Made by a program: the position numbers and the translations under genes. A DNA stretch of 64,000 nt from Patescibacteria group bacterium (GTDB lineage: Bacteria; Patescibacteriota; Patescibacteriia; UBA1558; S5-K13), in NCBI GenBank assembly GCA_028692545.1, contig JAQUXC010000003.1:47827-111826 (forward strand). The letters run 5' to 3'. The notes beneath the pieces are model-generated. The model made no database searches. It worked only from the letters and a program-made list of their open reading frames with translations, and was not told where the DNA came from. This document shows positions 5,332 to 56,550 of the stretch, in pieces (the first letter of the stretch is position 1; every line of letters begins with the position of its first letter).

Positions 5332-5350
5332 TATAATAATATAAAAGATA

Positions 5351-5379
5351 AGACCGGGGGTTTATTCCCGGTCTTTTTG
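5351..5379. terminator. bidirectional rho-independent terminator between convergent genes
   Basis: agaccggg-ggtttatt-cccggtct followed by tttttg; GC-rich stem in an AT-rich context. Confidence 0.75.
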
Positions 5380-5402
5380 TATTTTTTACTTCTTTTTTGT
5401 AT

Positions 5403-7381: not shown

Positions 7382-7395
7382 TTCACAACTATTAA

Positions 7396-9090
<1,695 letters not shown>

Positions 9091-9115
9091 AAAGCTAAAA
9101 ATATATTTTTACAAA

Positions 9116-9150
9116 AACTCCCAAGTTATACGACCTGGGAGTTTTGTTTT
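9116..9150 (+). terminator. rho-independent terminator after groEL
   Basis: aactccca-agttatacgacc-tgggagtt then ttgtttt. Confidence 0.6.
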
Positions 9151-9208
9151 ATTGTAAATTTATCTTATAATATATATAAGAGTTTTAAAAAACTGCAATT
9201 TTATTTTT

Positions 9209-10009: not shown

Positions 10010-10021
10010 TCCAAATAATTT

Positions 10022-10318
10022 ATGTTAAAAAATTTGTCAAAAGAAAAAATTGCAGCTATGAGTTATTTGTGGATACTTTGTTTTATACCATTTATTATAA
10101 GTAAAGATGAATTTGTAAGATTTCATGCAAAACAAGGTTTTGTTTTGTTTGTTATAGAGGTTTTACTTGTTTTTGTTGGATGGATACCTATTATAGGTCA
10201 GATTTTGATAGTTCTTATAATAATAACAGCAGTACTTGGATTTAGAAGTGCGATAGAGGGAAAAAAATGGGAAATTCCTTTTGTTTATGAATTATCAAAA
10301 AAAATTAATATAAAATAA
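10022..10318 (+). CDS. small integral membrane protein, DUF4870-like
   Basis: 98 aa; SYLWILCFIPFIISKDEFVRFHAKQG resembles the DUF4870 signature (..IPxxIxKDxFVRFHAxQ). Confidence 0.5.
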   Translation: MLKNLSKEKIAAMSYLWILCFIPFIISKDEFVRFHAKQGFVLFVIEVLLVFVGWIPIIGQILIVLIIITAVLGFRSAIEGKKWEIPFVYELSKKINIK

Positions 10319-10321
10319 TTT

Positions 10322-29306: not shown

Positions 29307-29383
29307 TTCGCGGTAGCTCAGTTGGTTAGAGCGACTGGCTGTTAACCAGTAGGTCGTCGGTTCGAACCCGACCCGCGAAGCCA
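29307..29383 (+). tRNA. tRNA-Asn (anticodon GTT)
   Basis: TTCGCGG-TA-GCTC-AGTTGGTTA-GAGC-G-ACTGG-CTGTTAA-CCAGT-AGGTC-GTCGG-TTCGAAC-CCGAC-CCGCGAA-G-CCA; 77 nt cloverleaf with a terminator downstream. Confidence 0.9.
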
Positions 29384-35424: not shown

Positions 35425-35612
35425 AATTTTGTAATTATAATTTTAATATTGCAGGTAGATTTTATCTCCTGTATAATAAATACTATCAAATGTTAAGTAT
35501 TAAATCAAAACAGAGAAAATGAGAAATAGGCATAAAACACTAGGTTTTAATGCCGATTATTTTACAATTTAATCGCCTAACCCTTATGAAGTAAAATTCT
35601 AAGGTATGGTAT

Positions 35613-35751
35613 AAAACCCAACCACGATAGTAAGCTCCTCATCGAGCAACTCGTGGTTGGGTTATGCAGGGAAACTTGCATAGGTAGTCAGCAGTGATTA
35701 TCTGTTCGTGGGGAGCTTTTTGTTTCCTACGAAACTCAAAACCCAACCACA
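35613..35751 (+). promoter_or_regulatory. structured 5' leader of the Type III R-M operon with alternative pairings
   Basis: aaaacccaaccacg (35613-26) pairs with cgtggttgggtt (35652-63). A second aaaacccaaccac (35738-50) abuts the mod ATG. gctcctc/ggggagc + ttttt forms a terminator-like element at ~35709-35720. Confidence 0.4.
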
Positions 35752-37533: not shown

Positions 37534-39713
37534 TTAAATTAAAAGATTATCAAAAAGAGGCAGTAGAAAATTTACATCAAAAAATAGAAAAATCTTTAAA
37601 GTCTCCAGAAAGTGAAGTTGTAGTATTTCAAGCCCCAACTGGTTCTGGTAAAACAGTTATGGTTTCTGCTTTATTAAAAGAATTTGTAAGAAATAGGCAA
37701 GATAATAATAAATTTTCTTTTGTTTGGGTTTCTGTAAGAATGTTGCACGAACAAAGCAAAGAAAAACTAGAAAGCTATTATGAAGATGATGGGAATTTAA
37801 GATGTTCTTATTTTGAAGATTTAGAAGACCGTAAAATTGATGAAAATGAAATATTATTTATCAATTGGCACAGTATAAACAAAAAGGATATAAATATTTT
37901 TATAAAAGACAATGAAAAGGATAATAATTTAAGTAATATCATAAAGAATACTAAAGAAGACGGCAGATTTATTATTTTGATTATAGATGAAAGTCATCAT
38001 ACCGCAGGTGCAGAAAAATCAAAAGAGCTTATTGAGATTATTGGTCCCAAAATAACGCTAGAAGTTTCAGCGACACCACACTTAACAGAAAAAGTTTCGG
38101 AGATAGAAAAGGTTCGTTTGTCTGATGTTAAGGCAGAAGAAATGATTAAATCTGAAATATCAGTTAATCCAGAGTTCCTTAATATTAAAATTGGTTTAAA
38201 AAGTAGTGATGAGATAGTTATAGAGCAAGCTTTAAAGAAGAGAGAAGAGTTATTAAAGATGTATAAAAGGGAGGGTTCAAAAATAAATCCCTTAATGCTT
38301 ATTCAACTCCCAGATAATAAAAGTAATTTAGTGAGTAAAAAAGAGGGGGTGATAAAACTTTTAAATAAAAAAGGAATAACTGAAAAAAATGGAAAACTTG
38401 CCATCTGGTTATCTGAGGATAAATCTGATACTTTGCCAAACATTGAAAAAAATGATAATGAAGTTGAGGTCTTGATATTTAAACAAGCAATTGCTTTAGG
38501 TTGGGATTGTCCAAGAGCTTCGATTTTAGTGATTTTCAGAGAGTCAAAAAGTTTTACTTTTACAATCCAAACGATAGGTAGAATAATGAGAATGCCAGAG
38601 TTAAAATATTATTCAAAAGAACCAGAATTAAATGTTGGATATGTTTTTACAAATTTACCCAACATAGAAATTACGGAAGATTACGCAAAAGACTATATAA
38701 CTATTTATGAGTCAAAAAGAGATAGCAAGCTTTATAATAATATTTCTTTGCCATCAATTTATCTAAGAAGACAAAGAGAAAGAACTCGTTTATCTGGAGA
38801 ATTTGTGAAGATTTTTACAAAAATTACCGAAGCAAATAATTTTAAGAAACAAATAAATCTTAAGCCTTCAAAAATTATAAATCCTATAATAGCAGAGGGT
38901 AAAATTATCGATATTGATAAATCAGGTGAAATTGAACATAAAGGAATGCTTAAAGTATCTTTAGATGAAAAAGAATTACAAGACAAGTTTGATAGATTTA
39001 TAGTGCAAAATTGCACTCCTTATTCACCAGCGGACTCAAGCGATAGAATGAAAACGGCGATTTATCAATTTTTTAATAAGGAATTTAAATTTGATAAATA
39101 TGACTCTAAGGTTCAAAGAATGGTTTTAGGTAAAGAAAATATACAACTTTTTGTTAATATTCTTAATTTAGCTAAAGAAAAATATAAGAAAGAGGTTGTG
39201 GAGAAATTAAGTGAAAAAAGAGAACTACAAGCAATTTCTAATTGGGAGGTGCCAATATTTATAACTTATAATAGTAGATATAAAAAGGAAGAACAACCTA
39301 TTTCTGTTATGAAACCATTTTATGTTGCAACTCAAAGTGAGCCAGAAAGATTATTCATAGAGTTGCTTAATAATTCAAAAAAAATTAAGTGGTGGTATAA
39401 GAATGGTGAGGCAGAAATAAAATATTTTGCAATTTTAAGGTCTGATGATAGAGCATTTTATCCAGATTTTATAATTCAATTTAAAAACGGAACTATTGGA
39501 ATATTTGAGACTAAAAGTGGATTTACAGCGGGTGAAGACGCAAAAGAAAGAGCTGAAAGTTTGCAAAGATATATTAAGAAACAAAATAAGTCTGGTAAAA
39601 AAATTATTGGTGGTATAGCTATCTATGTCAATGGAACGTGGCGATACAATGATAATGATAAATATAAATACGACCCAAATAATTTAAGTGAGTGGAAAAT
39701 TTTGAGTTTGTAA
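37530..39713 (+). CDS. res: Type III restriction enzyme Res subunit (helicase + PD-ExK endonuclease)
   Basis: Walker A VFQAPTGSGKT, DEAH-like IIDESHH, helicase C motifs, C-terminal nuclease motif YPDFIIQF...IFETK; 727 aa. Confidence 0.85.
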   Translation: MIKLKDYQKEAVENLHQKIEKSLKSPESEVVVFQAPTGSGKTVMVSALLKEFVRNRQDNNKFSFVWVSVRMLHEQSKEKLESYYEDDGNLRCSYFEDLEDRKIDENEILFINWHSINKKDINIFIKDNEKDNNLSNIIKNTKEDGRFIILIIDESHHTAGAEKSKELIEIIGPKITLEVSATPHLTEKVSEIEKVRLSDVKAEEMIKSEISVNPEFLNIKIGLKSSDEIVIEQALKKREELLKMYKREGSKINPLMLIQLPDNKSNLVSKKEGVIKLLNKKGITEKNGKLAIWLSEDKSDTLPNIEKNDNEVEVLIFKQAIALGWDCPRASILVIFRESKSFTFTIQTIGRIMRMPELKYYSKEPELNVGYVFTNLPNIEITEDYAKDYITIYESKRDSKLYNNISLPSIYLRRQRERTRLSGEFVKIFTKITEANNFKKQINLKPSKIINPIIAEGKIIDIDKSGEIEHKGMLKVSLDEKELQDKFDRFIVQNCTPYSPADSSDRMKTAIYQFFNKEFKFDKYDSKVQRMVLGKENIQLFVNILNLAKEKYKKEVVEKLSEKRELQAISNWEVPIFITYNSRYKKEEQPISVMKPFYVATQSEPERLFIELLNNSKKIKWWYKNGEAEIKYFAILRSDDRAFYPDFIIQFKNGTIGIFETKSGFTAGEDAKERAESLQRYIKKQNKSGKKIIGGIAIYVNGTWRYNDNDKYKYDPNNLSEWKILSL

Positions 39714-39717: not shown

Positions 39718-40188
39718 ATGAAAAAGCCACGAGAAATAATAACCGAAGATTTCGTTCAAAAGACCATAATAAAATATTTAGAATTAAAAGGGTGGGGTAA
39801 ATCGTTAAAGAGTTCTGAATTGTGGGAGCAGGGTGTTGATATAAAAGTTTGTAATAATCAATTTTCTAGATATTGGCTTATAGAAGCTAAGGGAGACCCA
39901 TCAATCAATGTAAAAAATCCAAGTGGAAGTCAAAGTAGTAGTTTTAATTCAGCTTTAGGGCAGATTATTACAAGAATGCACAGAAATGGTAAAAGAGGTT
40001 ATAAATATGGTTATAAATATGGTGTAGCTCTCCCAGTGTCATTTAGAAGTATGGTCATAAGAAAAATGTCTTTTGATGTAATGGATAAATTAAACCTTTA
40101 TCTATTTTTTGTTGATAGTCTTGGGAGAGTTGAAGAAATAAACTATAAGGATTTAAAAAATCTAAGAACAAAGAAAAATGGAAAATAA
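39718..40188 (+). CDS. small PD-(D/E)xK-fold nuclease-like protein
   Basis: GVDIKVCNN...WLIEAKGD fits the D...E-x-K restriction-endonuclease-like core; 156 aa; 4 bp after res. Confidence 0.5.
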   Translation: MKKPREIITEDFVQKTIIKYLELKGWGKSLKSSELWEQGVDIKVCNNQFSRYWLIEAKGDPSINVKNPSGSQSSSFNSALGQIITRMHRNGKRGYKYGYKYGVALPVSFRSMVIRKMSFDVMDKLNLYLFFVDSLGRVEEINYKDLKNLRTKKNGK

Positions 40189-41679: not shown

Positions 41680-42237
41680 ATGAACAATAAAAGAGTAGCT
41701 GTTTTTATAGACAATAGTAATGTTTTTGGAAATATGCGAGATTTGAAAAAATCAGGAATAAATTGGGTTTGTTTGTATGACCCAGAATTTTTAGCAAAAA
41801 AATTAGCTGGAAATAGAGAATTAGTGTATACAGGATTTTATTGCACTAGACCACCAGCATATCTTTTAAAGGGAAATAATGATGAAAAATATAAATTTAA
41901 TACTGCTAATAAATATTACAGCGAAATAGAAAAAAATCCTTCTGTATCCGTGAAATATGGAGACTTAAAGGGAACTAGAGGCAATCTAATAGAAAAAAAT
42001 TTAGATACTCAAATAAGCTCTGATATGGTAGAAATGGCGGCGTTTGATAAATATGACATCGCAATTATAGTTTCTAATGATGGGGATTATAAAAGTGCTA
42101 TTGAAAGCACTAAGAAATTTAATAAAAAAATAGAGGTTTTATTTTTTCAGGGTAGCTTATCTATGTCTTTAAGAAGTGTAAGTGATATAACAAGACGAGC
42201 TAGATGTTCTTATTTTGTGAAATTAGATGGTATGTAG
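41680..42237 (+). CDS. NYN-domain (LabA/DUF88-like) putative ribonuclease
   Basis: RVAVFIDNSNV...D..IIVSNDGDY pattern of NYN/PIN-like nucleases; 185 aa. Confidence 0.7.
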   Translation: MNNKRVAVFIDNSNVFGNMRDLKKSGINWVCLYDPEFLAKKLAGNRELVYTGFYCTRPPAYLLKGNNDEKYKFNTANKYYSEIEKNPSVSVKYGDLKGTRGNLIEKNLDTQISSDMVEMAAFDKYDIAIIVSNDGDYKSAIESTKKFNKKIEVLFFQGSLSMSLRSVSDITRRARCSYFVKLDGM

Positions 42238-42349: not shown

Positions 42350-42361
42350 CGAAGCCAACCT
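42350..42361. repeat. 12-bp exact repeat of the tRNA-Asn 3' end/flank (candidate attR core)
   Basis: cgaagccaacct is identical to 29376..29387. The following bases are also similar (acct-gta vs acctagta). A GC-rich 12-mer is unlikely by chance in this AT-rich DNA. Confidence 0.4.
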
Positions 42362-42444
42362 AGTACATGTTTCGAGCAACCGGCCTGCCTCGGCGTAGCC
42401 GTAGGCGAAGACGGGGTTGCGTCGAAAATCACATATTAGAGCAT

Positions 42445-42479
42445 AAAGACGTTTTTTATCAAGGCGTCTTTTTGTTTTT
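42445..42479 (+). terminator. rho-independent terminator
   Basis: aaagacg-ttttttatcaagg-cgtcttt + ttgttttt. Confidence 0.55.
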
Positions 42480-42546
42480 CAGCTAGATTGATTTTTAGGT
42501 TGAAATGTGCGAAAATATGAATATTCTTATATAAAAATGAATAATT

Positions 42547-45489
42547 ATGAATATCACAGATCATCAAGCTAAATATTTTGCTTATGAGCTCACTAAACGT
42601 TGTGCTTCAGATAGTCTAGAAAAATTATCATCAACTCTCTCAAATTCTCAAGTAGATTTGAACCCACATCAAATAGAGGCAGCTTTATTTGCTTTTAGAT
42701 CTCCACTTTCTAAAGGAGCTATTTTAGCTGATGAGGTTGGTTTAGGAAAAACAATTGAAGCTGGTCTTGTAATTTCTCAAAAGTGGGCAGAGAGAAAAAG
42801 AAAAATACTTTTAATAGTTCCTGCTAGTTTAAGAAAACAATGGAATTCAGAGCTCCAAGAAAAATTTTTTATTCCATCAATTATTTTAGAAGCAAAATCT
42901 TTTAATCAGTATATAAAAGAAGGAAATCTTAATCCATTTAATCAAAAAGACCTTATAGTAATCTGTTCATATCATTTTGCAAAAGGAAAATCTGTTTATA
43001 TAAAACAAACGAATTTTGATTTAGTTATTATTGATGAGGCGCATAGATTGAGAAATGTTTATAAAAATAATAATGTAATCGCCCGTGAGATAAAGGACGC
43101 AGTTCAGGCATATCCAAAAATACTTCTTACAGCCACACCATTACAAAATTCTTTACTTGAATTATATGGATTAACAAGTATTATTGATGAACATATCTTT
43201 GGAGATTTAAACAGCTATAAGGCTAATTATGCAAAAGTATCTAGAGAACAAGATATATATGAGAGTGAACTTGGAATGGTAGAACCAAGACAAGAGATGT
43301 TTGTTGATTTACGAAATAGACTTAAACCAATTTGTATTCGTACTTTACGTAGACAAGTTTTAGAATATATAAATTATCGTGATAGAAAACCAATTACTCA
43401 AGATTATATTCCAACAGAACAGGAAATTGAGTTGTATGATGGAATGACAGAATATTTACAAAGACCCAAATTGTATGCGCTACCATCAAGTCAACGCCAA
43501 CTTATGACGCTTATTTTAAGAAAACTTTTGGCCTCTTCTTCTTTTGCTATTGCAAGTACTCTAGATGGTCTTATTTATAAATTAGATAAACTTATAGAAC
43601 ACATCAGACAAAATTCAGTTGTTAAAATTGATGATTTACCAAAAGAAATAGAAGAGGACTATGAAACATATTCTGAAACTGTTGATGAGTGGATTGATAA
43701 TGAAAAAGATGAGAACGAAAATAAGATCAATGAAAAGAAAAATAAATTAAATATTGAAGATATACAACAAATTAAAGAAGAAAAAAAAGATTTAGAAGTA
43801 TTTAGAGATTTAGCTAAATCTATATTCAAGAATTCAAAAGGAGAGTCACTTTTAATAGCTTTAAAGAAGGGCTTCGAAATGACACAGGATCTTGGAGCTC
43901 AAAAAAAAGCTGTTATTTTTACAGAATCTAGAATTACGCAAAAATATTTATTAGATTTATTATCTGAAAATGGATATCAAGACAAGATTATTTTATTCAA
44001 TGGCACAAATAATGATCAAAAATCAAAAGAAATATATTTAGAATGGTTGAAAAAGAATAAAGATACTGACAAAATTACTGGCTCTAAAACAGCTGATTTA
44101 CGTGCGGCAATCGTAGAATATTTTAAATCAGATGCTGAAATTATGATCGCTACTGAAGCAGCAGCAGAGGGTATAAATTTACAATTTTGTTCTTTGGTTA
44201 TAAATTATGATCTTCCGTGGAATCCCCAAAGAATTGAACAGAGAATTGGTCGTTGTCATCGTTATGGACAAAAACACGATGTTGTCGTGGTAAATTTTGT
44301 AAATAGAAAAAATGCTGCCGATCAAAGGGTCTATGAACTTTTAGATCAGAAATTTATGTTATTTAAGGGTGTATTTGGTGCAAGTGATGAAGTTCTTGGA
44401 AATATTGAATCTGGGGTAGATTTTGAAAAAAGGATAGCTTCAATTTATCAATCTTGTCGTACCGAAGAAGAAATTAATAAAGCATTCGATTCTCTTCAAG
44501 CAGAAATGGATGAATCTATTCAAGAAGGAATTAAAAATGCAAAAGAGAAACTACTTGAAAATTTTGATGCAGATGTACACGAAAAATTAAAGATAAATTT
44601 AAAAGAAAGTAGGGCTTATTTAGAAACATATGAAAAATGGTTATGGGAAATCTCACAATACTTTTTGAAAGACAAAGCCAATTATTCAACTGATGATTAT
44701 TCTTTTACATTAAAAGAAAATCCATTTCCAGGTGAAGATATTGATGAAGGTCCTTATAGAATTGGAAAAAATATTGAAGATGCACATATTTATCGTCCGG
44801 GACATCCATTAGCAATTCGCATTTTAGATAAAATAAAATCAAATCAGTTATATCCGTGTGAAATCGTTTTTAACTATTCTAACTATGGACAAATTATTTC
44901 CCCAATCAAGGAATTAATCGGCATTTCTGGTATAATGAAAGTATCCCAATTAACAATTGATTCATTTGAGACGGAAGATGTTGTGTTGGTTACCGCAATA
45001 AATGATAGGGGCAATGTTATAGAAGAAGATATCGCAAAGAAGCTTTTTGCCTTAGATACTGAAATATTGCAAAATAAAATTGAGATAGAATCAGAAAATA
45101 TAGATAAAAAAGAAAAAGAAAAAGTTAAAATTATTACTACTAATATTTCCGAGAGAAATAGCGAATTTTTTGATGAAGAAGTTGACAAACTTGATAAATG
45201 GGCTGAAGATGTAAAAAAGAGTTTAGAAATAGAGCTTAGAAGAATGGATATAGATATAAAAACAATGAAAACAAATGCAAAGAAAATTTTAAACTTAGAA
45301 GAAAAAGTAAAATTACAAAGAGAGATAAAAAACTTAGAAAAGAAAAGAAATGAGATGCGTCAAAAGCTTTATAAAGCCCAAGATGAAGTAGATGTAAAAA
45401 AAGAAAATTTACTTGATAAAGTAGAAGCGCAACTTAATCAAAAAATATCTCTAACTACACTATTTGTTATTAAATTTAAAATAATATAA
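42547..45489 (+). CDS. SNF2-family helicase/ATPase with ~340-aa coiled-coil C-terminal extension
   Basis: Motif I LADEVGLGKTIEAG, II IIDEAHRLRN, III LTATPLQNSLLELY, VI NPQRIEQRIGRCHRYGQ; 980 aa. Confidence 0.85.
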   Translation: MNITDHQAKYFAYELTKRCASDSLEKLSSTLSNSQVDLNPHQIEAALFAFRSPLSKGAILADEVGLGKTIEAGLVISQKWAERKRKILLIVPASLRKQWNSELQEKFFIPSIILEAKSFNQYIKEGNLNPFNQKDLIVICSYHFAKGKSVYIKQTNFDLVIIDEAHRLRNVYKNNNVIAREIKDAVQAYPKILLTATPLQNSLLELYGLTSIIDEHIFGDLNSYKANYAKVSREQDIYESELGMVEPRQEMFVDLRNRLKPICIRTLRRQVLEYINYRDRKPITQDYIPTEQEIELYDGMTEYLQRPKLYALPSSQRQLMTLILRKLLASSSFAIASTLDGLIYKLDKLIEHIRQNSVVKIDDLPKEIEEDYETYSETVDEWIDNEKDENENKINEKKNKLNIEDIQQIKEEKKDLEVFRDLAKSIFKNSKGESLLIALKKGFEMTQDLGAQKKAVIFTESRITQKYLLDLLSENGYQDKIILFNGTNNDQKSKEIYLEWLKKNKDTDKITGSKTADLRAAIVEYFKSDAEIMIATEAAAEGINLQFCSLVINYDLPWNPQRIEQRIGRCHRYGQKHDVVVVNFVNRKNAADQRVYELLDQKFMLFKGVFGASDEVLGNIESGVDFEKRIASIYQSCRTEEEINKAFDSLQAEMDESIQEGIKNAKEKLLENFDADVHEKLKINLKESRAYLETYEKWLWEISQYFLKDKANYSTDDYSFTLKENPFPGEDIDEGPYRIGKNIEDAHIYRPGHPLAIRILDKIKSNQLYPCEIVFNYSNYGQIISPIKELIGISGIMKVSQLTIDSFETEDVVLVTAINDRGNVIEEDIAKKLFALDTEILQNKIEIESENIDKKEKEKVKIITTNISERNSEFFDEEVDKLDKWAEDVKKSLEIELRRMDIDIKTMKTNAKKILNLEEKVKLQREIKNLEKKRNEMRQKLYKAQDEVDVKKENLLDKVEAQLNQKISLTTLFVIKFKII

Positions 45490-45493
45490 AGAT

Positions 45494-47164
45494 ATGGATA
45501 ATAAACAAAGATTAGAGCTTACTTGGATTGGTAAAAATAATCTTGATTATGATATTTCTAATATTGAGCCGAGAATCTTAGAAGAGAATTTGAAACTTTC
45601 AAATTGTGAAAATGATCCAAATACGGAGAATATGATTATACACGGAGATAATTTACTTGCCCTTAAGGCTCTTCTTCCGGAATATGAGGGGAAAATAAAA
45701 TGTATTTATATTGATCCGCCCTATAATACTGGTAATGCTTTTGAACATTATGATGATTGTGTCGAACACAGTACTTGGCTTTCATTAATGAAACCAAGAT
45801 TAGAGTTATTAAAAAAATTGTTAAGTAGAGACGGAGTAATATTAGTTCAAATTGATGATAAAGAAGGTCATTATTTGAAAGTTTTAATGGACGAAGTATT
45901 TGATAGGAATAATTTTTTAGTATCAATTGCTGTAAGATCGTCTACACCAAGTGGGTTAAAAACAGCCCACAAAGCAAAAACAATTATTAAACAAAAAGAT
46001 TTTATTTTAGTCTATAAGAATGGCCCAGATATTAAAATTAGTCCTGCATACATCCCCAAAGAAAGTTGGGATGATCATTATAATTATTTTTTTGATAAAG
46101 AAAATAATAAAGTATTGAACTTAAAAGATGTTTTATTAGAGCATGGTATAGTTGATAAAAAACAAAAAATATCAGATATAAATATTTTCGATAAGGACTT
46201 TAGAGATTTTTATTTAAAAAACAAGGATAGAATATTCCGTACAGCCCCAGAAATGCCCATAGACATAAAAAACCAATCTAAACAAAATTTAAGTACAATA
46301 ATCGAATATGGTGACGAAGATGGTAAACAGTATGCATGGAATGGCAATAGAATGACTTTTTTAAATAAAACTATAAAAATCATAGATGGAGAAGAATACA
46401 TGTCAAATCTTTTATGCGATTTTTGGGGGGATATAGATTTTCAAAATACTCAAAATGAAGGAGGCGTGAAATTTCCAGCAAGTAAAAAACCAGAAAAATT
46501 GATTTTAAGAATTTTAAATATGTTTACAGAAGAAAATGACTTTGTTTTAGACTCATTTCTTGGTTCTGGCACAACTGCTGCAGTAGCGCATAAAATGAAG
46601 CGAAGGTATATAGGTGTTGAAATGGGGGATCATGCCTATTCACATTGTAAGGTACGGCTTGATAATGTGATAGATGGCTCTGACCAAGGTGGAATAAGCA
46701 GATCTGTGGAATGGAAAGGTGGGGGTGCATATAGATTTTATGAACTTGCACCTAGTTTTATTATAAAAGATGAATTTAGCAATCCTATTATTGATGAATA
46801 TTATGATGATGTTAAGCTTATAAAAGCAATGTGTAAATTTATGAATTTTACTTATCAACCAAGTAAAACAGAATATTGGAAACACGGCATTGGACAAGGT
46901 AAGAATTATATCTACATTACAACACAACTTTTAACATCTGGAATAGTACAACAAATTATTGGACATTTAAAAGAAGGGGAAACTCTAACAATTTGTCCTA
47001 AGAAATTTGAACCAGGAGCTGATAAAATTGATAATCGAATAATTATTAAAAAAATTCCTCAATCGGTTTTAAAATCTTGTCAATTTGGTAAAAAAGATTA
47101 TCTTCTCCCAATTAAAGAATTATCCATGGAAGAAATTGATACCGATGAAGAGAACGACGAATAA
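45494..47164 (+). CDS. Type III-like N6-adenine DNA methyltransferase (Mod), beta-class
   Basis: IYIDPPYNTGNAFEHYDD (motif IV) precedes FLGSGTTAAVA (motif I); 556 aa; 4 bp after the SNF2 gene. Confidence 0.85.
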   Translation: MDNKQRLELTWIGKNNLDYDISNIEPRILEENLKLSNCENDPNTENMIIHGDNLLALKALLPEYEGKIKCIYIDPPYNTGNAFEHYDDCVEHSTWLSLMKPRLELLKKLLSRDGVILVQIDDKEGHYLKVLMDEVFDRNNFLVSIAVRSSTPSGLKTAHKAKTIIKQKDFILVYKNGPDIKISPAYIPKESWDDHYNYFFDKENNKVLNLKDVLLEHGIVDKKQKISDINIFDKDFRDFYLKNKDRIFRTAPEMPIDIKNQSKQNLSTIIEYGDEDGKQYAWNGNRMTFLNKTIKIIDGEEYMSNLLCDFWGDIDFQNTQNEGGVKFPASKKPEKLILRILNMFTEENDFVLDSFLGSGTTAAVAHKMKRRYIGVEMGDHAYSHCKVRLDNVIDGSDQGGISRSVEWKGGGAYRFYELAPSFIIKDEFSNPIIDEYYDDVKLIKAMCKFMNFTYQPSKTEYWKHGIGQGKNYIYITTQLLTSGIVQQIIGHLKEGETLTICPKKFEPGADKIDNRIIIKKIPQSVLKSCQFGKKDYLLPIKELSMEEIDTDEENDE

Positions 47165-47168
47165 TATT

Positions 47169-49991
47169 ATGCAACCAGAACAAGCATTACAATATTTAAA
47201 TAGTACGATGAATTTAAGAGAGCCACAGGCAAAGAGTCTGCAAATTTTTTCTGATTATTTAAAATCTTCAGCTGGACAAATACTGTTAAAAAGAATGAAT
47301 AATAAAAATAATACAGAAAAAATTTTAGAATCATCAAAAAATTATTTTAAAGACATACCTGAAGCTCAAGAATTCGAAGTATTTGAAAGAGCTTTCCCAG
47401 CTTTTACTTTTGCACTTGCAACTGGAGTTGGTAAAACTCGTCTTATGGGAGCTTTTGTAGCATATCTTTATCTTGTATATAACATTCAACATTTTTTAAT
47501 CGTAGCTCCAAATCTTACTATTTATCGCAAATTACATGAAGATTTTAGTAGAGCAAATAATCCAAAATATGTTTTTAAAGGTATTCAAGAAATAAATATA
47601 AATACCACAAAGATTATTACTACTGATAATTATGCCAGCCATAAAGAAAATCCACTTTTTGGTAATCAAATTGAAATAAATATTTTTAATATCCAACAAT
47701 TTGCACAAAAGGATATGGCCAATGAACGTGGAATAACAAAAGCATGGGAAACTGCCAGTCAATCATATTTTGATTATTTAAAAAATCAAGAAGATTTAGT
47801 TGTTATGCTTGATGAGGCACATCATTATCATGCTGATGCAGCACTTGGTTCTCTTGATTTAATGAATCCTTTATTTGGTTTAGAATTTACTGCTACTCCA
47901 TATTTAGGTACTCAAGGCACTGGAAGAAATTTGCAACAAATAAGAATGAAAAATGTGCTATATTCTTATAATCTTGGTGATGCTATTCGTGGTAAATTTG
48001 TAAAAGATCCATGGGTAGGAACAGAGGCAGACGTGGATTTTCAACAATTCAATACAGAATCAATAGAAACTGATGTACGCAAATTACAATTAGCTGCTTA
48101 TTTTCATGAGCGTGCTAAAAATGCACTTAAAGAATACGCTCTCGAAAATAATAAACCGATTATTAAACCAGTTTTATTAGTAGTTGCAAAAGATACAAAA
48201 CATTCTGCTGAACTGAAGTCTCTTATAGATAGTGATGATTTTAGAGGAGGTGAGTTCAAGGGGAAAGTGATTGAAATAAATACAAAAATTCGTGGAGAAG
48301 AAGCAGATGAAAATATTGAAAAGTTGATTTCTTTAGAACATCCGGATAATACCATTGAGGTGGTTATTCATGTTAATATGTTAAAAGAGGGTTGGGATGT
48401 AACAAATGTTTACACAATAGCACCAATTAGAGCTGCAGCTACAGCAATTCTAACAGAGCAAACAATAGGTAGGGGGTTGCGTCTTCCTTATGGCGAGCGT
48501 ACAGGAGTGCCTTTAGTAGACAGATTAATGATTGTAGCACACGAACAATTTAAGAAAATTATAGAACTTGCTAAAGATTCTCCACTTATTCAAGGACGCG
48601 TAGAAGAAATATCGGAAAAAGAAACAAAAGAAATAAAAACTCTCACAGAAGTTCAACCAATAATACTTCAAAACATTACTACTGAAATAAAGAAGAATGA
48701 ACTTATAATGCGTGCTGTAAGTGAAAAAGCAGAAGATGCAATTTCTAAGCTACCTGAAATTCAATCTATTGATACTGATGTTAAAGAGAAAATGGTTGAA
48801 AAGAAGATAGAAGAATTAGTAAAAGAAACCGCCAAACAAACAGTTAGCGGATTATCATTTTCAGATTATCATAATCAGAAACAAAAAATACAAGTAAAAA
48901 CATCTTATGATCCAGATTCTTTCTTGGGACTATTGAATCCAGATGTACAGAAGGAACTTACAAAAATAGCCAAAGAATCGAGTATTGAATTAGAAAAAAG
49001 AAACATTCCTATACCAAGACTTATTCTTACACCAAATTATAGTGAGCTTATAATACACGATTTTGACTTGAATACTGGCATTCTTCAAAAATATACAAAT
49101 GAAAGAGCTATTTTAGAAGAACAACTTCAAAACGAAAAGGAAAAAAACCTATTTGGCGAAGATGTTCCCGGAAGACGTGTAACAGAAATAACTAGAGTAA
49201 CCAGTTTCGGAGCACAAAACAGGCAATCTCCTCAAAATACAATTATTGCAGCATTATTGGATTTTCCTCTAGTTGATTATGATGACCAAGGACAAAGACC
49301 ATTATTGTTAAAATTAGCAGATCAAGCAGTTAATTATTATAAAAAAACTGCAATTGACGATGATAATCTTTCATTAATTATAGAAAGTAATGCAAAATCA
49401 ATTGCTGGAGATATCTATAAACAAATTTTGGAACATAAAGAATACAAAGAAGAATATTTGGATTCTGGTGTAGCTGAACCAAAACCGTATTTAGAACAAT
49501 ATAATATTTCTATTTCATTTGGAGAAAAACCAGTTTCACTCAAATCTCAGGTAGATAGTTTTTCATATAAATTATTATATAATAATTTTCAAAAAGCGTG
49601 TCATTCTATGTATCGCTTCGATTCTTCTGATGAAATTAGATTAGCATATCTTTTAGATAATGATGGTTCTGTAGAAGATTGGCTTAGACCAGCACCAAAT
49701 CAATTTGAAGGATTGTATTGGAGAGACACAGAAGGAGAAGCGCATCATCGTTATGAACCGGATTTTGTAGTTGAGTTGAAAAAAGAAATTGTTATGATTG
49801 AAGTTAAACCAAGGGAAGAAATAGACACTCCAAACGTACAATCGAAAAAAACTACTGCTGATAAATATTGTGAAGAAATAAATAAAAATATAGGAAAATT
49901 TGGAATAACAAAACCATGGAGATATACTATAATCCCAACAGATAAAATAACCATTAATTCAACAATTGAGGGTTTATTTAGCAATAAATAA
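47169..49991 (+). CDS. Type III-like restriction subunit (Res: DEAH helicase + C-terminal PD-ExK nuclease)
   Basis: Walker A ATGVGKT; DEAH box LDEAHHYH; C-terminal YEPDFVVE...IEVKP. Start set at the ATG at 47169 just after the mod stop (the track ORF begins earlier within mod). Confidence 0.8.
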   Translation: MQPEQALQYLNSTMNLREPQAKSLQIFSDYLKSSAGQILLKRMNNKNNTEKILESSKNYFKDIPEAQEFEVFERAFPAFTFALATGVGKTRLMGAFVAYLYLVYNIQHFLIVAPNLTIYRKLHEDFSRANNPKYVFKGIQEININTTKIITTDNYASHKENPLFGNQIEINIFNIQQFAQKDMANERGITKAWETASQSYFDYLKNQEDLVVMLDEAHHYHADAALGSLDLMNPLFGLEFTATPYLGTQGTGRNLQQIRMKNVLYSYNLGDAIRGKFVKDPWVGTEADVDFQQFNTESIETDVRKLQLAAYFHERAKNALKEYALENNKPIIKPVLLVVAKDTKHSAELKSLIDSDDFRGGEFKGKVIEINTKIRGEEADENIEKLISLEHPDNTIEVVIHVNMLKEGWDVTNVYTIAPIRAAATAILTEQTIGRGLRLPYGERTGVPLVDRLMIVAHEQFKKIIELAKDSPLIQGRVEEISEKETKEIKTLTEVQPIILQNITTEIKKNELIMRAVSEKAEDAISKLPEIQSIDTDVKEKMVEKKIEELVKETAKQTVSGLSFSDYHNQKQKIQVKTSYDPDSFLGLLNPDVQKELTKIAKESSIELEKRNIPIPRLILTPNYSELIIHDFDLNTGILQKYTNERAILEEQLQNEKEKNLFGEDVPGRRVTEITRVTSFGAQNRQSPQNTIIAALLDFPLVDYDDQGQRPLLLKLADQAVNYYKKTAIDDDNLSLIIESNAKSIAGDIYKQILEHKEYKEEYLDSGVAEPKPYLEQYNISISFGEKPVSLKSQVDSFSYKLLYNNFQKACHSMYRFDSSDEIRLAYLLDNDGSVEDWLRPAPNQFEGLYWRDTEGEAHHRYEPDFVVELKKEIVMIEVKPREEIDTPNVQSKKTTADKYCEEINKNIGKFGITKPWRYTIIPTDKITINSTIEGLFSNK

Positions 49992-49994
49992 TTT

Positions 49995-51341
49995 ATGTCT
50001 AAATTTTTAATTTATAAAAATAAGGAAAAGATATTTAATTTAAATACTAAACTATATTTTGAAGAAGTTTATAAATCTTACTGTTCAAAAAATTACAGAT
50101 CAGCGGTTGTTATGTTATATTCAGTTGTTATATGTGATTTAATTTATAAATTACAAGAACTCAGAGATATATATAAGGATGATTGTGCGGTTGAAATTTT
50201 AAAAAAGATATCCACTTTAAGAAGTAGGGATGAAAAATCTCCAAAATGGGAGTCAGAACTTATTGAACTTATAAACAATAAAACATCCTTTTTTGAGAAT
50301 GCTGACTATGCTAATCTAATTAGTCTTCAGCAACACAGACACTTATCTGCTCATCCAGTTTTAGATCAGATAGATTTATTATTTTCACCAAATAAAGAAA
50401 CTACCAGGGCACATATTAGAAATATGCTTGAGGGAATACTTATTAAACCGCCTATATTTTCAAGAAAAATAATTGATCAATTGATTACAGATATATCATT
50501 AAAACAAGACATTTTTTTAAATAGAGGCTCTGATTTAAAAAAATATTTAGAAGCTAAATATTTAAAAAATTTATCAAAAGAAGTTGAGATTGCTATATTT
50601 AAAGCTTTGTGGAAATTTATATTTATAATTGAGAATGAAGATTGTGATAAAAATAGAAGTATTAATTTAGAGGCTCTAAAAATAATTTTTTATAGAAATA
50701 AGGAAAATTACTTACAATTAATAAAATCAGAAAGTGATTTTTTTAGTAATATTTCAAGAGGTAATTCTCTTATTTATTTAATAGTTTTTTTATCAAAAAA
50801 TAGAGAGATATATAAATTTTTAAATGATGGGGCTAAAGAAATTATAAAAGGTGGCTGCAAAGATGATGATAATTGTTATTTATTAAGTTGGTTTATAGAA
50901 GACGACATTTTAGAACACATAAAAAATGTTAAAAAGTATATTGTAGAAGAAAAGAGACATTTCGATATTAAAGTCGGTGCTTTTAATAGTTTGTTAGTTA
51001 TGGGATCTGAATTAAAATGTGAAAATGATATATTAGAATTTGGAATTTTTCTTTTTGGAAAAAGTACTAATTTCAACACGGCTGATAAAAGATTTGACGA
51101 TCTGATTGCCCCTTTTATGAATAAATATAATAAACAGCTCTTTAATATTTTATTTGAATCAATTGAATCTAATGACCAGGTTTATAATCGAGGAAGAATG
51201 TCTAGTGATAGTGAAAAAATTAAAAGTATTGCAGATAATGTTTTGGGGACAGATTTTGATTATAGTATCTATCCTGAATTTATGAAAAAATTGAATCCTT
51301 TAGAGTATTATAAGCAATTATCACAGACTAATTCAAATTAA
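49995..51341 (+). CDS. hypothetical 448-aa protein, last gene of the SNF2-Mod-Res operon (possible accessory/abortive-infection-like component)
   Basis: Starts 3 bp after res. Helical, no motif recognised; operon position suggests a functional link. Confidence 0.4.
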   Translation: MSKFLIYKNKEKIFNLNTKLYFEEVYKSYCSKNYRSAVVMLYSVVICDLIYKLQELRDIYKDDCAVEILKKISTLRSRDEKSPKWESELIELINNKTSFFENADYANLISLQQHRHLSAHPVLDQIDLLFSPNKETTRAHIRNMLEGILIKPPIFSRKIIDQLITDISLKQDIFLNRGSDLKKYLEAKYLKNLSKEVEIAIFKALWKFIFIIENEDCDKNRSINLEALKIIFYRNKENYLQLIKSESDFFSNISRGNSLIYLIVFLSKNREIYKFLNDGAKEIIKGGCKDDDNCYLLSWFIEDDILEHIKNVKKYIVEEKRHFDIKVGAFNSLLVMGSELKCENDILEFGIFLFGKSTNFNTADKRFDDLIAPFMNKYNKQLFNILFESIESNDQVYNRGRMSSDSEKIKSIADNVLGTDFDYSIYPEFMKKLNPLEYYKQLSQTNSN

Positions 51342-51371: not shown

Positions 51372-52670
51372 TTATTTTTTTAATGTAATTTTTTTATCCT
51401 TCAATATCAAATCACTCTTAAAACAACTCATCAGCTCTCTTTTTTCAATCATAGTCCCAGACCTTAAAATGTATTTAGCATAATCATTGATGCTAAATTT
51501 TTTTTGTTTTATTTCTTTGTTGTCTATTTCTACGAATCCTTTGTTGAATCTTGTATATCTTTGTAATTCTTCTTCAAATTGTTTTTGTATTCCTATATCA
51601 TCTATTTCTATTTTATCTACAATTTCTATAAGTTGTTTAATTAATTCTTCTTCTCGTATATATCCACCCTTACAAAATCTATTACTACTTCTAGTGCATC
51701 CATAGTATATATATTTAACAACTGATCCATCGCTTAGTTTTTTGAATTTTTCTTCTGCTGTAATTCCTGATCCACATAATCCGCATTTCATAAGTTTGGT
51801 AAATGCGAACTCTCTACAAACTTTATTTTCAATACTAAATGTATTGTATCTATCTCTTACTTTTATAAACAACTCTTTTGATATTATTGGATCATGTAAT
51901 CCTTTGTACCATTTATTACTTCCTATTGGATATTCAAATTCTCCATAATAAAATGTTTCATGAAGTATTTGAAAAATTGTACTAAGTGTTGGATTTTTTC
52001 CTTTTCTAGTTTTAAACCCAATTTCCATCAACCATTTTAATATTTTTTTACCACTAAAATTTTCATAAGCAACTCGCTCAAACATTTGTTTTATTATATG
52101 AGCTCTTTTAGGATCTAAAAATATTCTTTTGCTCCCTTTATCTCCATATTTATCATGAATATATCCAAGAGGTGGAGGAGATGGTCGCCATCCTTTTTCA
52201 CACTTTGCCCTCAAACCTCTTTGTACGTTTATGCTTTTATTATCGTTTTCTAATTTTGCTTGAGAACCTAGAATCATAAGAAGAAACTTTTCATTCGGAT
52301 TGTTGGTAAATTTTTGCCCATGTGTTTTTATTCCAACTAGTTTACCTTGATCCATTAAATCTACTATTCTTCCAAGGTCTCCTGCGTTTCTACTTAATCT
52401 ATCAGGAGCCCAGCATAGTATTCCTTGAAACATTCCGTTTTTTACATCTTCTAGTAATTGATTAAATACTGGTCTTTGTCCTGAGTCTTTTGCAGAATGA
52501 CTTTCCTTTCTAATCTCTGTAATTGTCATATTTTCCTTTATAGCCATTTCCATCATCTCCTTTATCTGAGAGTCTATTGAAAGGGCTTGTAATTCGTCCT
52601 GTTCTGTCGATTTACGAGCGTATAAACAGTATTTAACTGTTGAGTCGTCAAGCGTCGTTTTTGTGTCCAT
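51372..52670 (-). CDS. large serine recombinase (second copy, different sequence)
   Basis: LYARKSTEQDELQALSIDSQ catalytic region, recombinase domain, Cys ribbon CGLCG...YYGC; 432 aa. Confidence 0.85.
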   Translation of the reverse strand: MDTKTTLDDSTVKYCLYARKSTEQDELQALSIDSQIKEMMEMAIKENMTITEIRKESHSAKDSGQRPVFNQLLEDVKNGMFQGILCWAPDRLSRNAGDLGRIVDLMDQGKLVGIKTHGQKFTNNPNEKFLLMILGSQAKLENDNKSINVQRGLRAKCEKGWRPSPPPLGYIHDKYGDKGSKRIFLDPKRAHIIKQMFERVAYENFSGKKILKWLMEIGFKTRKGKNPTLSTIFQILHETFYYGEFEYPIGSNKWYKGLHDPIISKELFIKVRDRYNTFSIENKVCREFAFTKLMKCGLCGSGITAEEKFKKLSDGSVVKYIYYGCTRSSNRFCKGGYIREEELIKQLIEIVDKIEIDDIGIQKQFEEELQRYTRFNKGFVEIDNKEIKQKKFSINDYAKYILRSGTMIEKRELMSCFKSDLILKDKKITLKK

Positions 52671-53547: not shown

Positions 53548-54018
53548 TTAATTACTGATATCATTCATATCATTTTTTTCATTAGTATTATTTATAGCTG
53601 TTGAAGATTTTCTTGCGCGATCAAAGAGATCTCTTAACATTTGAGTTTGTCTATCTATTTCTGCATGTCTTTCCATTTTTAATTTTTCTATTTCATCTTT
53701 CAATTTGTTTATCTTGAAACTAGAATTCAAATTGTTTTTTCTGTATTTAGGATGATTATTTATAAGCCAGAATATAGAGGATTTTAAATCACCGTCTTTA
53801 ATTTTGTTCATTATAGTAGACTCAGCTAGTTCATTTATTATAGGTATGCTTATTTTTCTAGCCTCATTACATTTTTTACTAAATTTTTTATCAGACTGTT
53901 TCCATCTATAATAAGTACCTCTCTGTATAGCGAGTTTTGTACATGCTACTTGAATAATTGGATTTGATTCCAATTCTTCTATAATCTTCTTTTTAAGTTG
54001 AACTTGATTCGGGATCAT
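53548..54018 (-). CDS. small helix-turn-helix protein (phage terminase small subunit-like or regulator)
   Basis: VACTKLAIQRGTYYRWKQ HTH; 156 aa; overlaps the upstream methylase gene by 26 nt. Confidence 0.4.
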   Translation of the reverse strand: MIPNQVQLKKKIIEELESNPIIQVACTKLAIQRGTYYRWKQSDKKFSKKCNEARKISIPIINELAESTIMNKIKDGDLKSSIFWLINNHPKYRKNNLNSSFKINKLKDEIEKLKMERHAEIDRQTQMLRDLFDRARKSSTAINNTNEKNDMNDISN

Positions 54019-55360
54019 ATAATTTTACCCTTCTCCCACCGAATGCCCTTTCCCATCTGTTAATTATTACTTCTGCATAGATAGGAGATTTTTCCATCAA
54101 GAAACATCTCCTACTTAATTTATTTGCTGCGATTAAAGTACTACCGCTTCCTCCAAATGGCTCTAAAACTAGTTGATCTCTTTTTGTAAGAACTTTAATA
54201 TACGGAATTAATATTTCTACAGGTTTTGTTCCAAATATTATTCCTTGTCCTGACGACTTTTCATCCGATGCACGATACTCGATAAAGTCTGTAGGACAGT
54301 ACTTCTTTCCTTTTTCGTAGCTTTCCCACTGTGGTTTCCCCGCAATTGCAAAAAGTGCTGTTTCGTATTCATTTTGAAGTCCCTCGCCCTCATCTTCTAA
54401 ATTGTATTCAATATCAGTATCAGAAGAACCAACGACCGCTATGTCATATTTGTTAAAGAATTTGTACTTAGCTGAGAATCCCTGCATCCTATTGTTTAAG
54501 TGCCACACTAACATGTTTTTTATCTTCCAGTATTTTGCCATTTCATTCCATATGGTCATAATATTCTTCCAATTTTCATAAACTATGATACTAAAATTTT
54601 CATTAGCAACTTTACTAACATTTCCCATCCAAAGCTCTGTAAAATTATCAGGAAGTGATTCTGTTTCTAAATATCTTCTATTTTTCTTTGCTCCGAACCC
54701 GACTGTCGCTTCTCCATGTCTAGTTTTACCTTGTAAATAATTTAGAATATATGGCGGATCTGTTAGACAAAAGTCCGCCTTTTCATTTCCCATTAGTTTC
54801 ATCATATCTTCCTCTATAGTGGAGTCTCCACACATTATTTTTGAATCACCCAAGGCATACACATCTCCTTTTTGAACAGTGATTTCTGTTATGTTTAATT
54901 TTTTCAATTCGTTTTCTATATTAAATATTTCTTCCTTTCCTGTTTCTATGTCAAATATTTTATCTAGATCCAAGCTGTCAAAACCTATATCCGTGAGAAA
55001 GTTAGGATCAAATTTTGATAATAAGTCATAATCAAATTCACCTTGATTTTTGTTTAATCTAATATTTAGCTCTTTTTCTTTTTCAATGTCTGGAATGTTG
55101 ATATATACCACTGGTAGAGTATCAATTCCTAGTTCCATTGCTACAGCGTACCTAAAATGTCCGCCGATCAGAACATTGTGTCTTTCTGGAAAGGAATTGC
55201 ATATAAACGGATCTACTAGTCCGAATCTCGTAATACTTTCTTTTAGTTGATTAAATTGTTCTTTACTCCACTTACGTGGATTTTCTGTATTGAGTTTTAG
55301 TTCTTCAATAGGAACTTGTGTTATTTGGATTTTCTCCAAAATTTCTTTGTCTTGCGACAT
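53993..55360 (-). CDS. ParB-like nuclease domain fused to DNA methyltransferase (orphan, phage-type)
   Basis: N-terminal ParB/Srx-like VLIGGHFRYAVAMELG; MTase motif IV CLTDPPYILNY and motif I LEPFGGSGSTLIAA; 455 aa. Confidence 0.8.
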   Translation of the reverse strand: MSQDKEILEKIQITQVPIEELKLNTENPRKWSKEQFNQLKESITRFGLVDPFICNSFPERHNVLIGGHFRYAVAMELGIDTLPVVYINIPDIEKEKELNIRLNKNQGEFDYDLLSKFDPNFLTDIGFDSLDLDKIFDIETGKEEIFNIENELKKLNITEITVQKGDVYALGDSKIMCGDSTIEEDMMKLMGNEKADFCLTDPPYILNYLQGKTRHGEATVGFGAKKNRRYLETESLPDNFTELWMGNVSKVANENFSIIVYENWKNIMTIWNEMAKYWKIKNMLVWHLNNRMQGFSAKYKFFNKYDIAVVGSSDTDIEYNLEDEGEGLQNEYETALFAIAGKPQWESYEKGKKYCPTDFIEYRASDEKSSGQGIIFGTKPVEILIPYIKVLTKRDQLVLEPFGGSGSTLIAANKLSRRCFLMEKSPIYAEVIINRWERAFGGRRVKLYDPESSST

Positions 55361-55917: not shown

Positions 55918-56550
55918 ATGCATAAAATTCAAAAAGATATTTTAAATTTAGCTAATGATAAAAATCTAGCAAAGATGTCGCTTAGAGAAATTAGCAATGC
56001 AGTAGGAGAAGGGGATGCACCACAAAAAATAAAACACCATTTAGAACAGCTAGAGAAAAAAGGACTTTTAAGAATTTTAAAAGAAAAAGGAGAGACGGTC
56101 AAATTACAAGGTGGCAAATCACTAAATAGTAATTTAATAGCTATTCCTATTCTTGGATCAGCTAACTGTGGAGATGCAACAATTATTGCAGAAGATAAAA
56201 TAGAGGGTTACTTAAGAGTATCTCCTAAGATTTTTAATAAATCAAAAAATGTTTTTGCAATAAAGGCTATTGGAGATTCTATGAACATGGCAAAAATAGG
56301 AAAAGATCAAGATTCTATAAATGATGGAGATTATGTTATTGTTGACCATTCAATACAAGAACCAAAAGATGGAGATTATATAGTTTCAGTAATTGATGGT
56401 TTGGCAAATATAAAGAAATATAATTTTAGAGATAATACAATAATTTTAAAATCAGAATCAAAAAGAGACTATCCACCTATTTATATTCATGAAGATGATA
56501 TTGGTAATTATACAGTTGCAGGTAGAGTTGTTAAGGTTATAAAGAGTTAA
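55918..56550 (+). CDS. lexA: LexA-like repressor (winged-helix + S24 peptidase)
   Basis: C-terminal AIKAIGDSMNMAKI (Ser nucleophile) and a downstream Lys; N-terminal DNA-binding wing; 210 aa. Confidence 0.8.
   Translation: MHKIQKDILNLANDKNLAKMSLREISNAVGEGDAPQKIKHHLEQLEKKGLLRILKEKGETVKLQGGKSLNSNLIAIPILGSANCGDATIIAEDKIEGYLRVSPKIFNKSKNVFAIKAIGDSMNMAKIGKDQDSINDGDYVIVDHSIQEPKDGDYIVSVIDGLANIKKYNFRDNTIILKSESKRDYPPIYIHEDDIGNYTVAGRVVKVIKS

Follow-up and report, generated by a model that had tools for sequence, protein, structure and literature searches.

Introduction

Type III restriction-modification (R-M) enzymes such as EcoP15I and EcoP1I (Mod2Res) are encoded by adjacent mod and res genes. Mod is a beta-class N6-adenine methylase with a central, variable target-recognition domain, and in Res an SF2 helicase-like ATPase at the N-terminus is joined to a PD-(D/E)xK nuclease at the C-terminus. 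Cleavage by these systems depends on ATP and on two unmethylated sites in inverse orientation, and their methylation is a hemimethylation of one strand. In canonical Type III systems Mod and Res suffice, and we know of none that has a third motor. A front end made of an SNF2 motor and an adenine methylase is known from class 1 DISARM, ARMADA, BREX type 3 and BR/Hma. Here, a four-gene operon of a Patescibacteria group bacterium was investigated, in which a gene for an SNF2-family ATPase is followed by Type III mod and res genes and by a gene encoding a protein of 448 amino acids. The operon lies within a 64,000 nucleotide stretch of DNA (contig JAQUXC010000003.1 of assembly GCA_028692545.1, positions 47,827 to 111,826), which is referred to throughout as the window. 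Comparison with related loci indicates that the operon probably consists of two separable defence modules, an SNF2-associated Type III R-M system and the tRNA-cleaving defence protein DARNA, which are stacked as cargo of an integrative element with a serine recombinase.

In class 1 DISARM (DrmD-DrmMI-DrmA-DrmB-DrmC) and in ARMADA (ArmA-ArmB-ArmC-ArmD) an SNF2 gene (RapA/BrxHII-like) is located directly 5' of an N6-adenine methylase gene. For RapA/BrxHII an architecture with an inactive REase has been proposed. The methylase of both systems is PglX-like (PF13659), and as effector they use a helicase (YprA/DUF1998) together with a nuclease of the PLD or Vsr type. Walker mutants of ArmA abolish defence by ARMADA, and deletion of drmD together with drmMI reduces the protection conferred by class 1 DISARM.

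Operons for R-M, BREX and related systems are known to harbour abortive-infection (Abi) genes of the HEPN and RhuM types (PMC3710099; PMC12839542), and a precedent for a HEPN anticodon nuclease that shares an operon with a restriction system is PrrC-EcoprrI (PMC3710099; PMC12839542), which is of Type Ic (PMC3710099). PD-T7-3 was found as a single-gene system in a screen of the E. coli pangenome (PMC9519451). The E. coli protein, DARNA, carries an R-x4-H motif in its N-terminal HEPN RNase, has a helical C-terminal domain, assembles as a dodecamer, is switched on by single-stranded DNA (ssDNA) presented by the ssDNA-binding protein (SSB) of the phage and cuts tRNA anticodon loops, leading to abortive infection (bioRxiv 10.64898/2026.02.22.705581). 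It acts alone, a single gene providing both defence and tRNA cleavage (PMC9519451; bioRxiv 10.64898/2026.02.22.705581).

Results

Proteins encoded by the first three genes

The four genes are intact and, as described in the initial annotation, they are co-directional and 3-4 bp apart; the gaps are 4, 4 and 3 bp when Res is counted from its ATG (Table 1). Mod matched N6_N4_Mtase (PF01555) at 4e-41 and the PADLOC MTase_III profile PDLC03636 at 6e-143, the latter over residues 1-551. DPPY74 precedes FLGSG355 in this protein, which is the motif order of the beta class, and its description as a beta-class N6-adenine methyltransferase was therefore correct. The central target-recognition region, at approximately residues 184-315, is the part of Mod that diverges between homologues. 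Res matched the ResIII helicase at 6e-20 and, over its full length, PADLOC REase_III PDLC03648 at 4e-125, and the motifs GVGKT86, DEAH215 and QTIGRGLR431 are intact. A C-terminal nuclease motif is present (PD864...E878-V-K880), with a TnsA-like N domain at 845-905, so that the proposed combination of a DEAH helicase and a PD-ExK nuclease was also upheld. In gene order, methylase class and domain layout the pair resembles EcoP15I and EcoP1I.

The SNF2 protein contains SNF2-rel_dom and Helicase_C domains with intact motifs (GLGKT65, DEAH163 and QRIGRCHRYGQ565), and its best profile was DrmD (PADLOC PDLC02619, 1.5e-204). The helicase core covers approximately residues 30-620 and is followed by an extension from approximately residue 620 to 980. 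The identification of a 980-amino-acid SNF2 ATPase stood, but the extension had been described as a coiled coil of ~340 residues and this was only partly the case; in the AlphaFold model (pLDDT 75.5) a long helix leads into an alpha+beta domain (~711-842), after which come a coiled-coil hairpin (850-963, ~110 residues) and, at the end, a strand. The isolated alpha+beta domain gave a poor model (pLDDT 65.6), for which no Foldseek match in the PDB had an E-value below 0.6. The C-terminal module is specific to the clade and defines a sizeable family; used as a query, it retrieved 187 representatives at the 50% identity level (E <= 1e-30), and the full-length carriers listed are ~850-1050 amino acids long (one has 1493) and have the module at their C-terminal end. 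Patescibacteria contain a great many full-length SNF2 homologues with 70-82% identity, which also occur in metagenome-assembled genomes of Ignavibacteria and Omnitrophota; those from deltaproteobacterial and planctomycete metagenome-assembled genomes are 69-73% identical.

SNF2, Mod and Res form a conserved unit

In all 22 related loci with enough sequence SNF2 was followed by Mod and then by Res, and SNF2 was always the first of the three. Where a genome or metagenome locus extended 3.8 kb or more downstream, Mod and Res stood behind SNF2 in 18 of 18. This gene-neighbourhood check confirmed that SNF2 is linked to the R-M pair: SNF2-Mod-Res (the trio) is a robust conserved unit and SNF2 is no bystander. 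Loci of this SNF2 clade differ in this respect from canonical Type III systems, as an SNF2-family ATPase gene is placed ahead of mod in every one of the 22.

The range of the trio extends to at least seven phyla; its loci come from Patescibacteria, Deltaproteobacteria, Planctomycetota, Bacteroidota, Actinomycetota and a Melainabacteria-like lineage, and from proteobacterial plasmids. The closest relative (L114/L115) carries it within a conjugative element, and it is located on plasmids of Salmonella (L112, IncFIB, NZ_CP100694.1) and Cupriavidus (L113, NZ_CP016951.1). The SNF2 gene itself was present in 50 plasmid records, including 15 from Salmonella, 11 from Klebsiella and five from Providencia. 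The same SNF2 clade is paired with three PADLOC subfamilies of Mod/Res, 03636/03648 in the window, 03646/03654 in Bacteroidales (L021) and 03634/03647 in Arthrobacter (L023); DrmD PDLC02619 was again the best profile for the SNF2 proteins of L021 and L023. Across the loci the identity to the window protein was 69-80% for SNF2, whereas for Res it ranged from 72% down to 36%. The steadiness of SNF2 beside a varying Res suggests a generic motor combined with an exchangeable specificity module. At least three loci, L109, L112 and L113, have a small helix-turn-helix (HTH) gene ahead of SNF2; the one in L112 and L113 is located directly 5' and encodes an HTH_17 protein of 66 amino acids. No name for the trio was found in literature searches of open-access papers, and it is apparently a widespread, unnamed variant of Type III R-M.

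A further difference from canonical Type III systems is that genes of Abi type are often embedded between SNF2 and mod. Between one and three extra genes were present there in nine of the 22 loci, and the contents of this slot were Bro-N / PDC-S13, RhuM / PDC-S05, Shedu, Schlafen-AlbA2 with DUF2130 and PDC-S46, Abi_2 with IS256, and unknown genes. The combination of IS256 and Abi_2 (HEPN) is that of the Salmonella plasmid. The position after Res is also used, by an AbiP2 reverse transcriptase in L011 (3-bp gap), by a PHP-SMC/AAA_21 protein in L114 and by DARNA in the window. The window operon is an ordinary stacked arrangement of R-M and Abi genes.

The fourth gene encodes a homologue of DARNA

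The 448-amino-acid protein had been regarded as uncharacterised in the initial annotation, but it matches a named single-gene system, PD-T7-3, which is the same as DARNA and 'Dandelion'. The match to the PADLOC PD-T7-3 profile PDLC04108 covered positions 1-430 of 432 (E = 1.8e-156), and residues 4-428 aligned with residues 11-443 of "Dandelion" in PDB entry 9wxf, which has 12 chains (E = 2.7e-90). Judged by its sequence, the protein is a full-length PD-T7-3/DARNA homologue, having the same length and two-domain layout as E. coli DARNA. The N-terminal HEPN RNase contains the motif R115-HLSA-H120 (R-x4-H), of which both residues are invariant in an alignment of 28 sequences, and the C-terminal domain is alpha-helical and would sense ssDNA. 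Unlike the standalone gene of E. coli, the window gene is almost certainly co-transcribed behind an R-M system, and in a bacterium of the candidate phyla radiation (CPR). A literature search, mostly without subscription journals, found no paper on 'Dandelion'.

The ssDNA activator of E. coli DARNA is read at its 'CT' by W406. By our own counting, and with an assumed offset of five residues in the 9wxf numbering, W406 corresponds to the tryptophan in the 'YWR' sequence of 9wxf, and this residue is opposite a two-residue gap in window DARNA at around residues 395-401. A phenylalanine, F368 if counted with that assumed offset, does align and is conserved in window DARNA. As the tryptophan has no aligned counterpart, the sequence preference for the activator may differ.

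DARNA and the trio are found apart

The initial annotation had treated the quartet as one system. All four genes were found together in none of the 22 trio loci and in none of ~83 DARNA loci, so conservation as a quartet was not observed. DARNA was absent from every trio locus of the same SNF2 clade, and the trio was absent from the three closest DARNA homologues and from 80 metagenome DARNA loci, of which 28 extend 3 kb or more upstream. The three closest homologues (57-63% identity) have unrelated neighbours, and the unrelated neighbours of DARNA across the ~83 loci fit the autonomy of a single-gene system. The proposal of an undescribed defence variant is supported in part: the trio is conserved and apparently unnamed, but synteny gives no support to the 448-amino-acid protein as its effector or sensor. 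For the fourth gene, the absence of the quartet elsewhere and the match to a named system are both outcomes that the initial annotation had counted as refuting.

The two modules could also be separated within one kind of mobile element. In the window the second serine recombinase and the HTH, ParB-methylase and LexA/S24 genes that follow it (Table 1) are the backbone of a mobile element, and defence genes fill its cargo slot. This backbone recurs in L001, L003, L008 and L111 with differing defence cargo, namely a SMODS (CBASS-like) cluster, DARNA, or the trio with or without Shedu. In L111, SNF2-Shedu-Mod-Res runs directly into a serine recombinase gene of convergent orientation and then into HTH and ParB-methylase genes, which is the right flank of the window minus DARNA. 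In L003/L004 DARNA is convergent with the same kind of recombinase and there is no trio. L001 has the order recombinase ... ParB-methylase - S24 repressor - SMODS cluster - DARNA, and L008 the order recombinase ... ParB-methylase ... SNF2-Mod-Res. DARNA thus moves independently of the trio, and the two are cargo, either alternative or additive, that a single family of integrative elements carries in Patescibacteria.

Operon boundaries and the surrounding island

The features of the region are listed in Table 1. From its sequence, the strong terminator in front of SNF2 is predicted to close the upstream NYN transcription unit and to set the 5' boundary of the operon. The adjoining GC-rich hairpin is ~65% GC, compared with 29% for the genome. 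Hairpin and terminator had no match in Rfam and were not conserved ahead of SNF2 in the other loci; the stretch (42370-42471) is a possible small RNA or 3'-UTR element. The promoter is a weakly supported candidate, as such matches occurred near the chance level in this AT-rich DNA (77 found, 65.8 expected). A scan for terminators yielded eight sites overall, compared with 3.4 expected from shuffles. None was at any of the three gene junctions, and three + strand stem-loops of 5-6 bp lay within the coding sequence of SNF2 and Res (44275, 47226 and 47831).

Table 1. Features of the defence island and of the operon within it (window coordinates)
Feature	Position	Strand	Remarks
tRNA-Asn	29307-29383		left edge of island
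Large serine recombinase, first	29342-30982	-	
LOOT RNA	35574-35702	+	Rfam RF03000, 75.5 bits (gathering score 46.4)
First Type III Mod+Res pair	35752-39713		upstream of the studied operon
156-aa open reading frame	39718-40188	+	after first Type III Res; nuclease-like motif D41...E56-A-K58
NYN-domain gene	41680-42237	+	predicted RNase; between the two Type III systems
GC-rich hairpin	42370-42428	+	between NYN gene and SNF2, just 5' of terminator
Intrinsic terminator	42445-42471	+	11-pair stem, then T-run; fold z = -2.8
Candidate sigma-70-like promoter	42500-42527	+	TTGAAA-16-TATTCT; 20 bp 5' of SNF2 ATG
SNF2-family ATPase	42547-45489	+	980 aa; DrmD/RapA/BrxHII-like; first gene of trio
Type III Mod	45494-47164	+	556 aa
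Type III Res	47169-49991	+	940 aa from ATG; mechanical reading frame opens at TTG 47085
DARNA / PD-T7-3 / 'Dandelion' homologue	49995-51341	+	448 aa; starts 3 bp past Res
Large serine recombinase, second	51372-52670	-	convergent with DARNA
HTH gene	53548-54018		element backbone
ParB-methylase fusion	53993-55360		element backbone
LexA/S24 repressor	55918-56550		element backbone

The window has a GC content of 28.7%. Housekeeping genes (pheT, gyrB, groEL, pyk, ppdK, dnaG and rpoD) continue up to 29.2 kb, and a SAM riboswitch-metK locus at 56.6 kb marks their return. The defence and mobile island between them is ~27 kb long and spans from tRNA-Asn, on the side of rpoD, to metK (29307-56600); the large open reading frames (ORFs) outside it are all housekeeping genes. 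The presence of two large serine recombinases suggests two integrative elements, in tandem or nested. The only candidate for an attachment-site repeat was a 12-nucleotide identity, CGAAGCCAACCT, between the 3' end of tRNA-Asn (29376-29387) and the spacer 5' of SNF2 (42350-42361). It could be an att remnant bounding the first element, although statistically it is at chance level (E = 0.93). GC content at third codon positions was 0.15-0.21 in the island genes (0.27 in the ParB-methylase gene), which is near that of the host genes, and gave no signal of a recent or separate acquisition of DARNA.

A further Type III pair upstream had been pointed out previously and is indeed present; it is only distantly related to the pair in the operon (23% identity for Res, and 42% for Mod over an N-terminal block). 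LOOT, a structured RNA, lies 50 bp 5' of the mod gene of this first pair, here in a CPR genome. The 156-amino-acid ORF that follows the first Res had no family match. A homologue with 39% identity is encoded in L030 (3921-4370), where it is located 2 bp 5' of a DARNA homologue. That this ORF might be a nuclease split off from the first Res was considered, and rejected as unnecessary because that Res has a PDF...FETK motif of its own. The NYN-domain protein gave a weak match to the PADLOC candidate HEC-09 (1.3e-11), and the gene may be a further defence gene.

Discussion

Relation to known systems

The placing of a RapA/BrxHII-like SNF2 gene directly 5' of an N6-adenine methylase gene is shared with class 1 DISARM and ARMADA, and DrmD is the closest profile to the SNF2 protein. 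The initial annotation had noted a resemblance to DISARM in which the remaining genes were missing, and this was confirmed, as DrmA, DrmB (DUF1998) and DrmC (PLD) were not found among the 44 scanned ORFs of the window (these include all those of at least 200 amino acids but three of 226-243 amino acids). Neither the YprA-family helicase-nuclease ArmC nor the UvrD-like ArmD was found in the same set. The effector gene of the window operon is a Type III Res, unlike that of DISARM and ARMADA, and its methylase is a beta-class Type III Mod (PF01555) and not PglX-like/PF13659 as are DrmMI and ArmB. The SNF2 protein scored 686 bits against the NCBIfam profile DISARM_DrmD_b, under the curated cut-off of 950, and matched only positions 21-673 of 868. 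The C-terminal third of the protein is unmatched, and its C-terminal module differs from the profile past approximately position 673. For BREX, BrxC/DUF499, PglZ and PglX/DUF1156 were not the best PADLOC match of any of the four operon proteins (among the best 25 of 47 matches for SNF2 and the best 25 of 59 for Mod) and were not found in the scanned flanking ORFs; BrxH was only a secondary PADLOC match of SNF2. Membership of DISARM, ARMADA, BREX and BR was rejected, as their defining components were not found. It is thus very improbable that the locus goes back to a class 1 DISARM or ARMADA system, now degenerate or minimal, from which DrmA, DrmB and DrmC were lost; the DrmD match and the adjacent adenine methylase would suit such an origin, but it is effectively refuted by the methylase family and the missing genes. 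The profile score below the cut-off also speaks against it, and the same gene set is intact in 22 loci, which shows that the window locus is not a remnant.

With respect to DARNA the operon resembles PrrC-EcoprrI, in that a HEPN anticodon nuclease and a restriction system are combined in one operon, and more generally the 'backup effectors' of R-M, BREX and BR systems, in which DNA restriction comes first and suicidal RNA cleavage second. Unlike PrrC, DARNA has no ABC-ATPase domain (none was found in the profile scan of the 448-amino-acid protein), and E. coli DARNA is triggered by SSB-bound ssDNA and not by release from an R-M complex.

A model for the two modules

The biochemistry of both modules we infer from related proteins. 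The first module (42547-49991) would be a three-gene SNF2-associated Type III R-M system. Mod, as in other members of its family, would use the variable domain at its centre to recognise a short asymmetric site, and would mark self DNA by N6-adenine methylation of one strand. On unmethylated invader DNA the Mod-Res complex would engage the Res ATPase and then the PD-ExK nuclease would cut, as in EcoP15I-type enzymes. The SNF2 protein is most likely an accessory double-stranded DNA motor required for efficient restriction, which could assist in the search for sites, clear bound proteins or hand DNA over to Res. The second module (49995-51341), DARNA, would be an autonomous second line of defence; switched on by SSB-presented ssDNA, such as phage replication intermediates, it would cut tRNA anticodon loops and thereby abort infection by phages that escape restriction.

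Some observations weigh against this model. The role given to SNF2 depends on the invariant synteny and on the analogy to ArmA in ARMADA and DrmD in class 1 DISARM, its C-terminal domain has no informative structural match, and the ~22 synteny loci were gathered by similarity to one query and are not an unbiased census. The 3-bp junction between Res and DARNA, at which there is no terminator, makes it almost certain that DARNA is co-transcribed with the trio, and a regulatory or even physical coupling of the two is therefore possible. In four of the 80 metagenome loci, moreover, DARNA is directly 3' of other SNF2-type helicase genes, and its start overlaps the last codons of the helicase (L057, L069, L080 at 7257-11299 and L082 at 2203-6326). 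In L080 the helicase is part of a DUF499-DUF3780-DUF1156 methylase-PLD_helicase system (Type-2 BR-like), and in L082 it is part of a locus with a HEC-01A ATPase and a BrxH-like helicase. These arrangements hint at a recurrent affinity of DARNA for helicase-containing modification systems.

Such observations would suit a single methylation-dependent system of four proteins with DARNA as the dedicated effector or sensor. As DARNA is activated by ssDNA, ssDNA made by SNF2 and Res or by restriction could activate the HEPN RNase, or the R-M complex could keep DARNA latent in the manner of EcoprrI and PrrC. That explanation appears unlikely, however, since the quartet did not recur in either set of loci, E. 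coli DARNA defends and cleaves tRNA unaided, the trio of L111 and the DARNA of L003 are separate within the same element backbone, and unrelated Abi genes occupy the same positions in other trios. In a more elaborate form, the operon would be an integrated two-layer system in which ssDNA or DNA ends, generated as SNF2 and Res engage and cut invading DNA, license DARNA. HEPN proteins of the DARNA family would then be recruited time and again as backup effectors, and specifically to methylation-based systems that contain a helicase; only a low probability is assigned to this form also. Another explanation, likewise unlikely, is that SNF2 is a hitch-hiking neighbour of a two-gene Type III system, either a single-gene defence or a RapA-like transcription factor. 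Mod and Res alone suffice in canonical systems, no tight co-evolution is visible between the steady SNF2 and the variable Res of three Mod/Res subfamilies, insertions between SNF2 and Mod are frequent, and the plasmid homologues are labelled merely 'SNF2-related protein' by PGAP. A hitch-hiking gene is difficult to reconcile with synteny that is invariant over many phyla and always has SNF2 first, with an HTH gene placed ahead of SNF2 as if controlling the whole unit, and with the requirement for homologous pairs of SNF2 and N6-adenine methylase in ARMADA and class 1 DISARM. Two stacked and separable modules are thus the explanation that we prefer, and on balance we lean towards a view of the trio as an undescribed subclass of Type III R-M with three components, of which the SNF2 motor is indispensable.

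Implications

The fourth gene, DARNA, is already known, and the stacking of R-M with HEPN genes is ordinary; the apparent four-gene composite system dissolves into a known logic, a first line of R-M with a HEPN abortive-infection backstop. The moderately novel core is the SNF2-associated Type III R-M variant. What remains of interest is that one SNF2 clade is wired to several Type III subfamilies, in many phyla and on plasmids of Salmonella, Klebsiella and Providencia. The trio extends the front end of SNF2 motor and adenine methylase to classical Type III restriction, and it is a small, tractable three-gene model for the function of the SNF2 motor, a question shared with DISARM and ARMADA. 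The plasmid-borne trios of cultured bacteria (L112 and L113) are ready experimental models for this. The operon is also a clear case of the stacking of defence genes in Patescibacteria, whose genomes are reduced.

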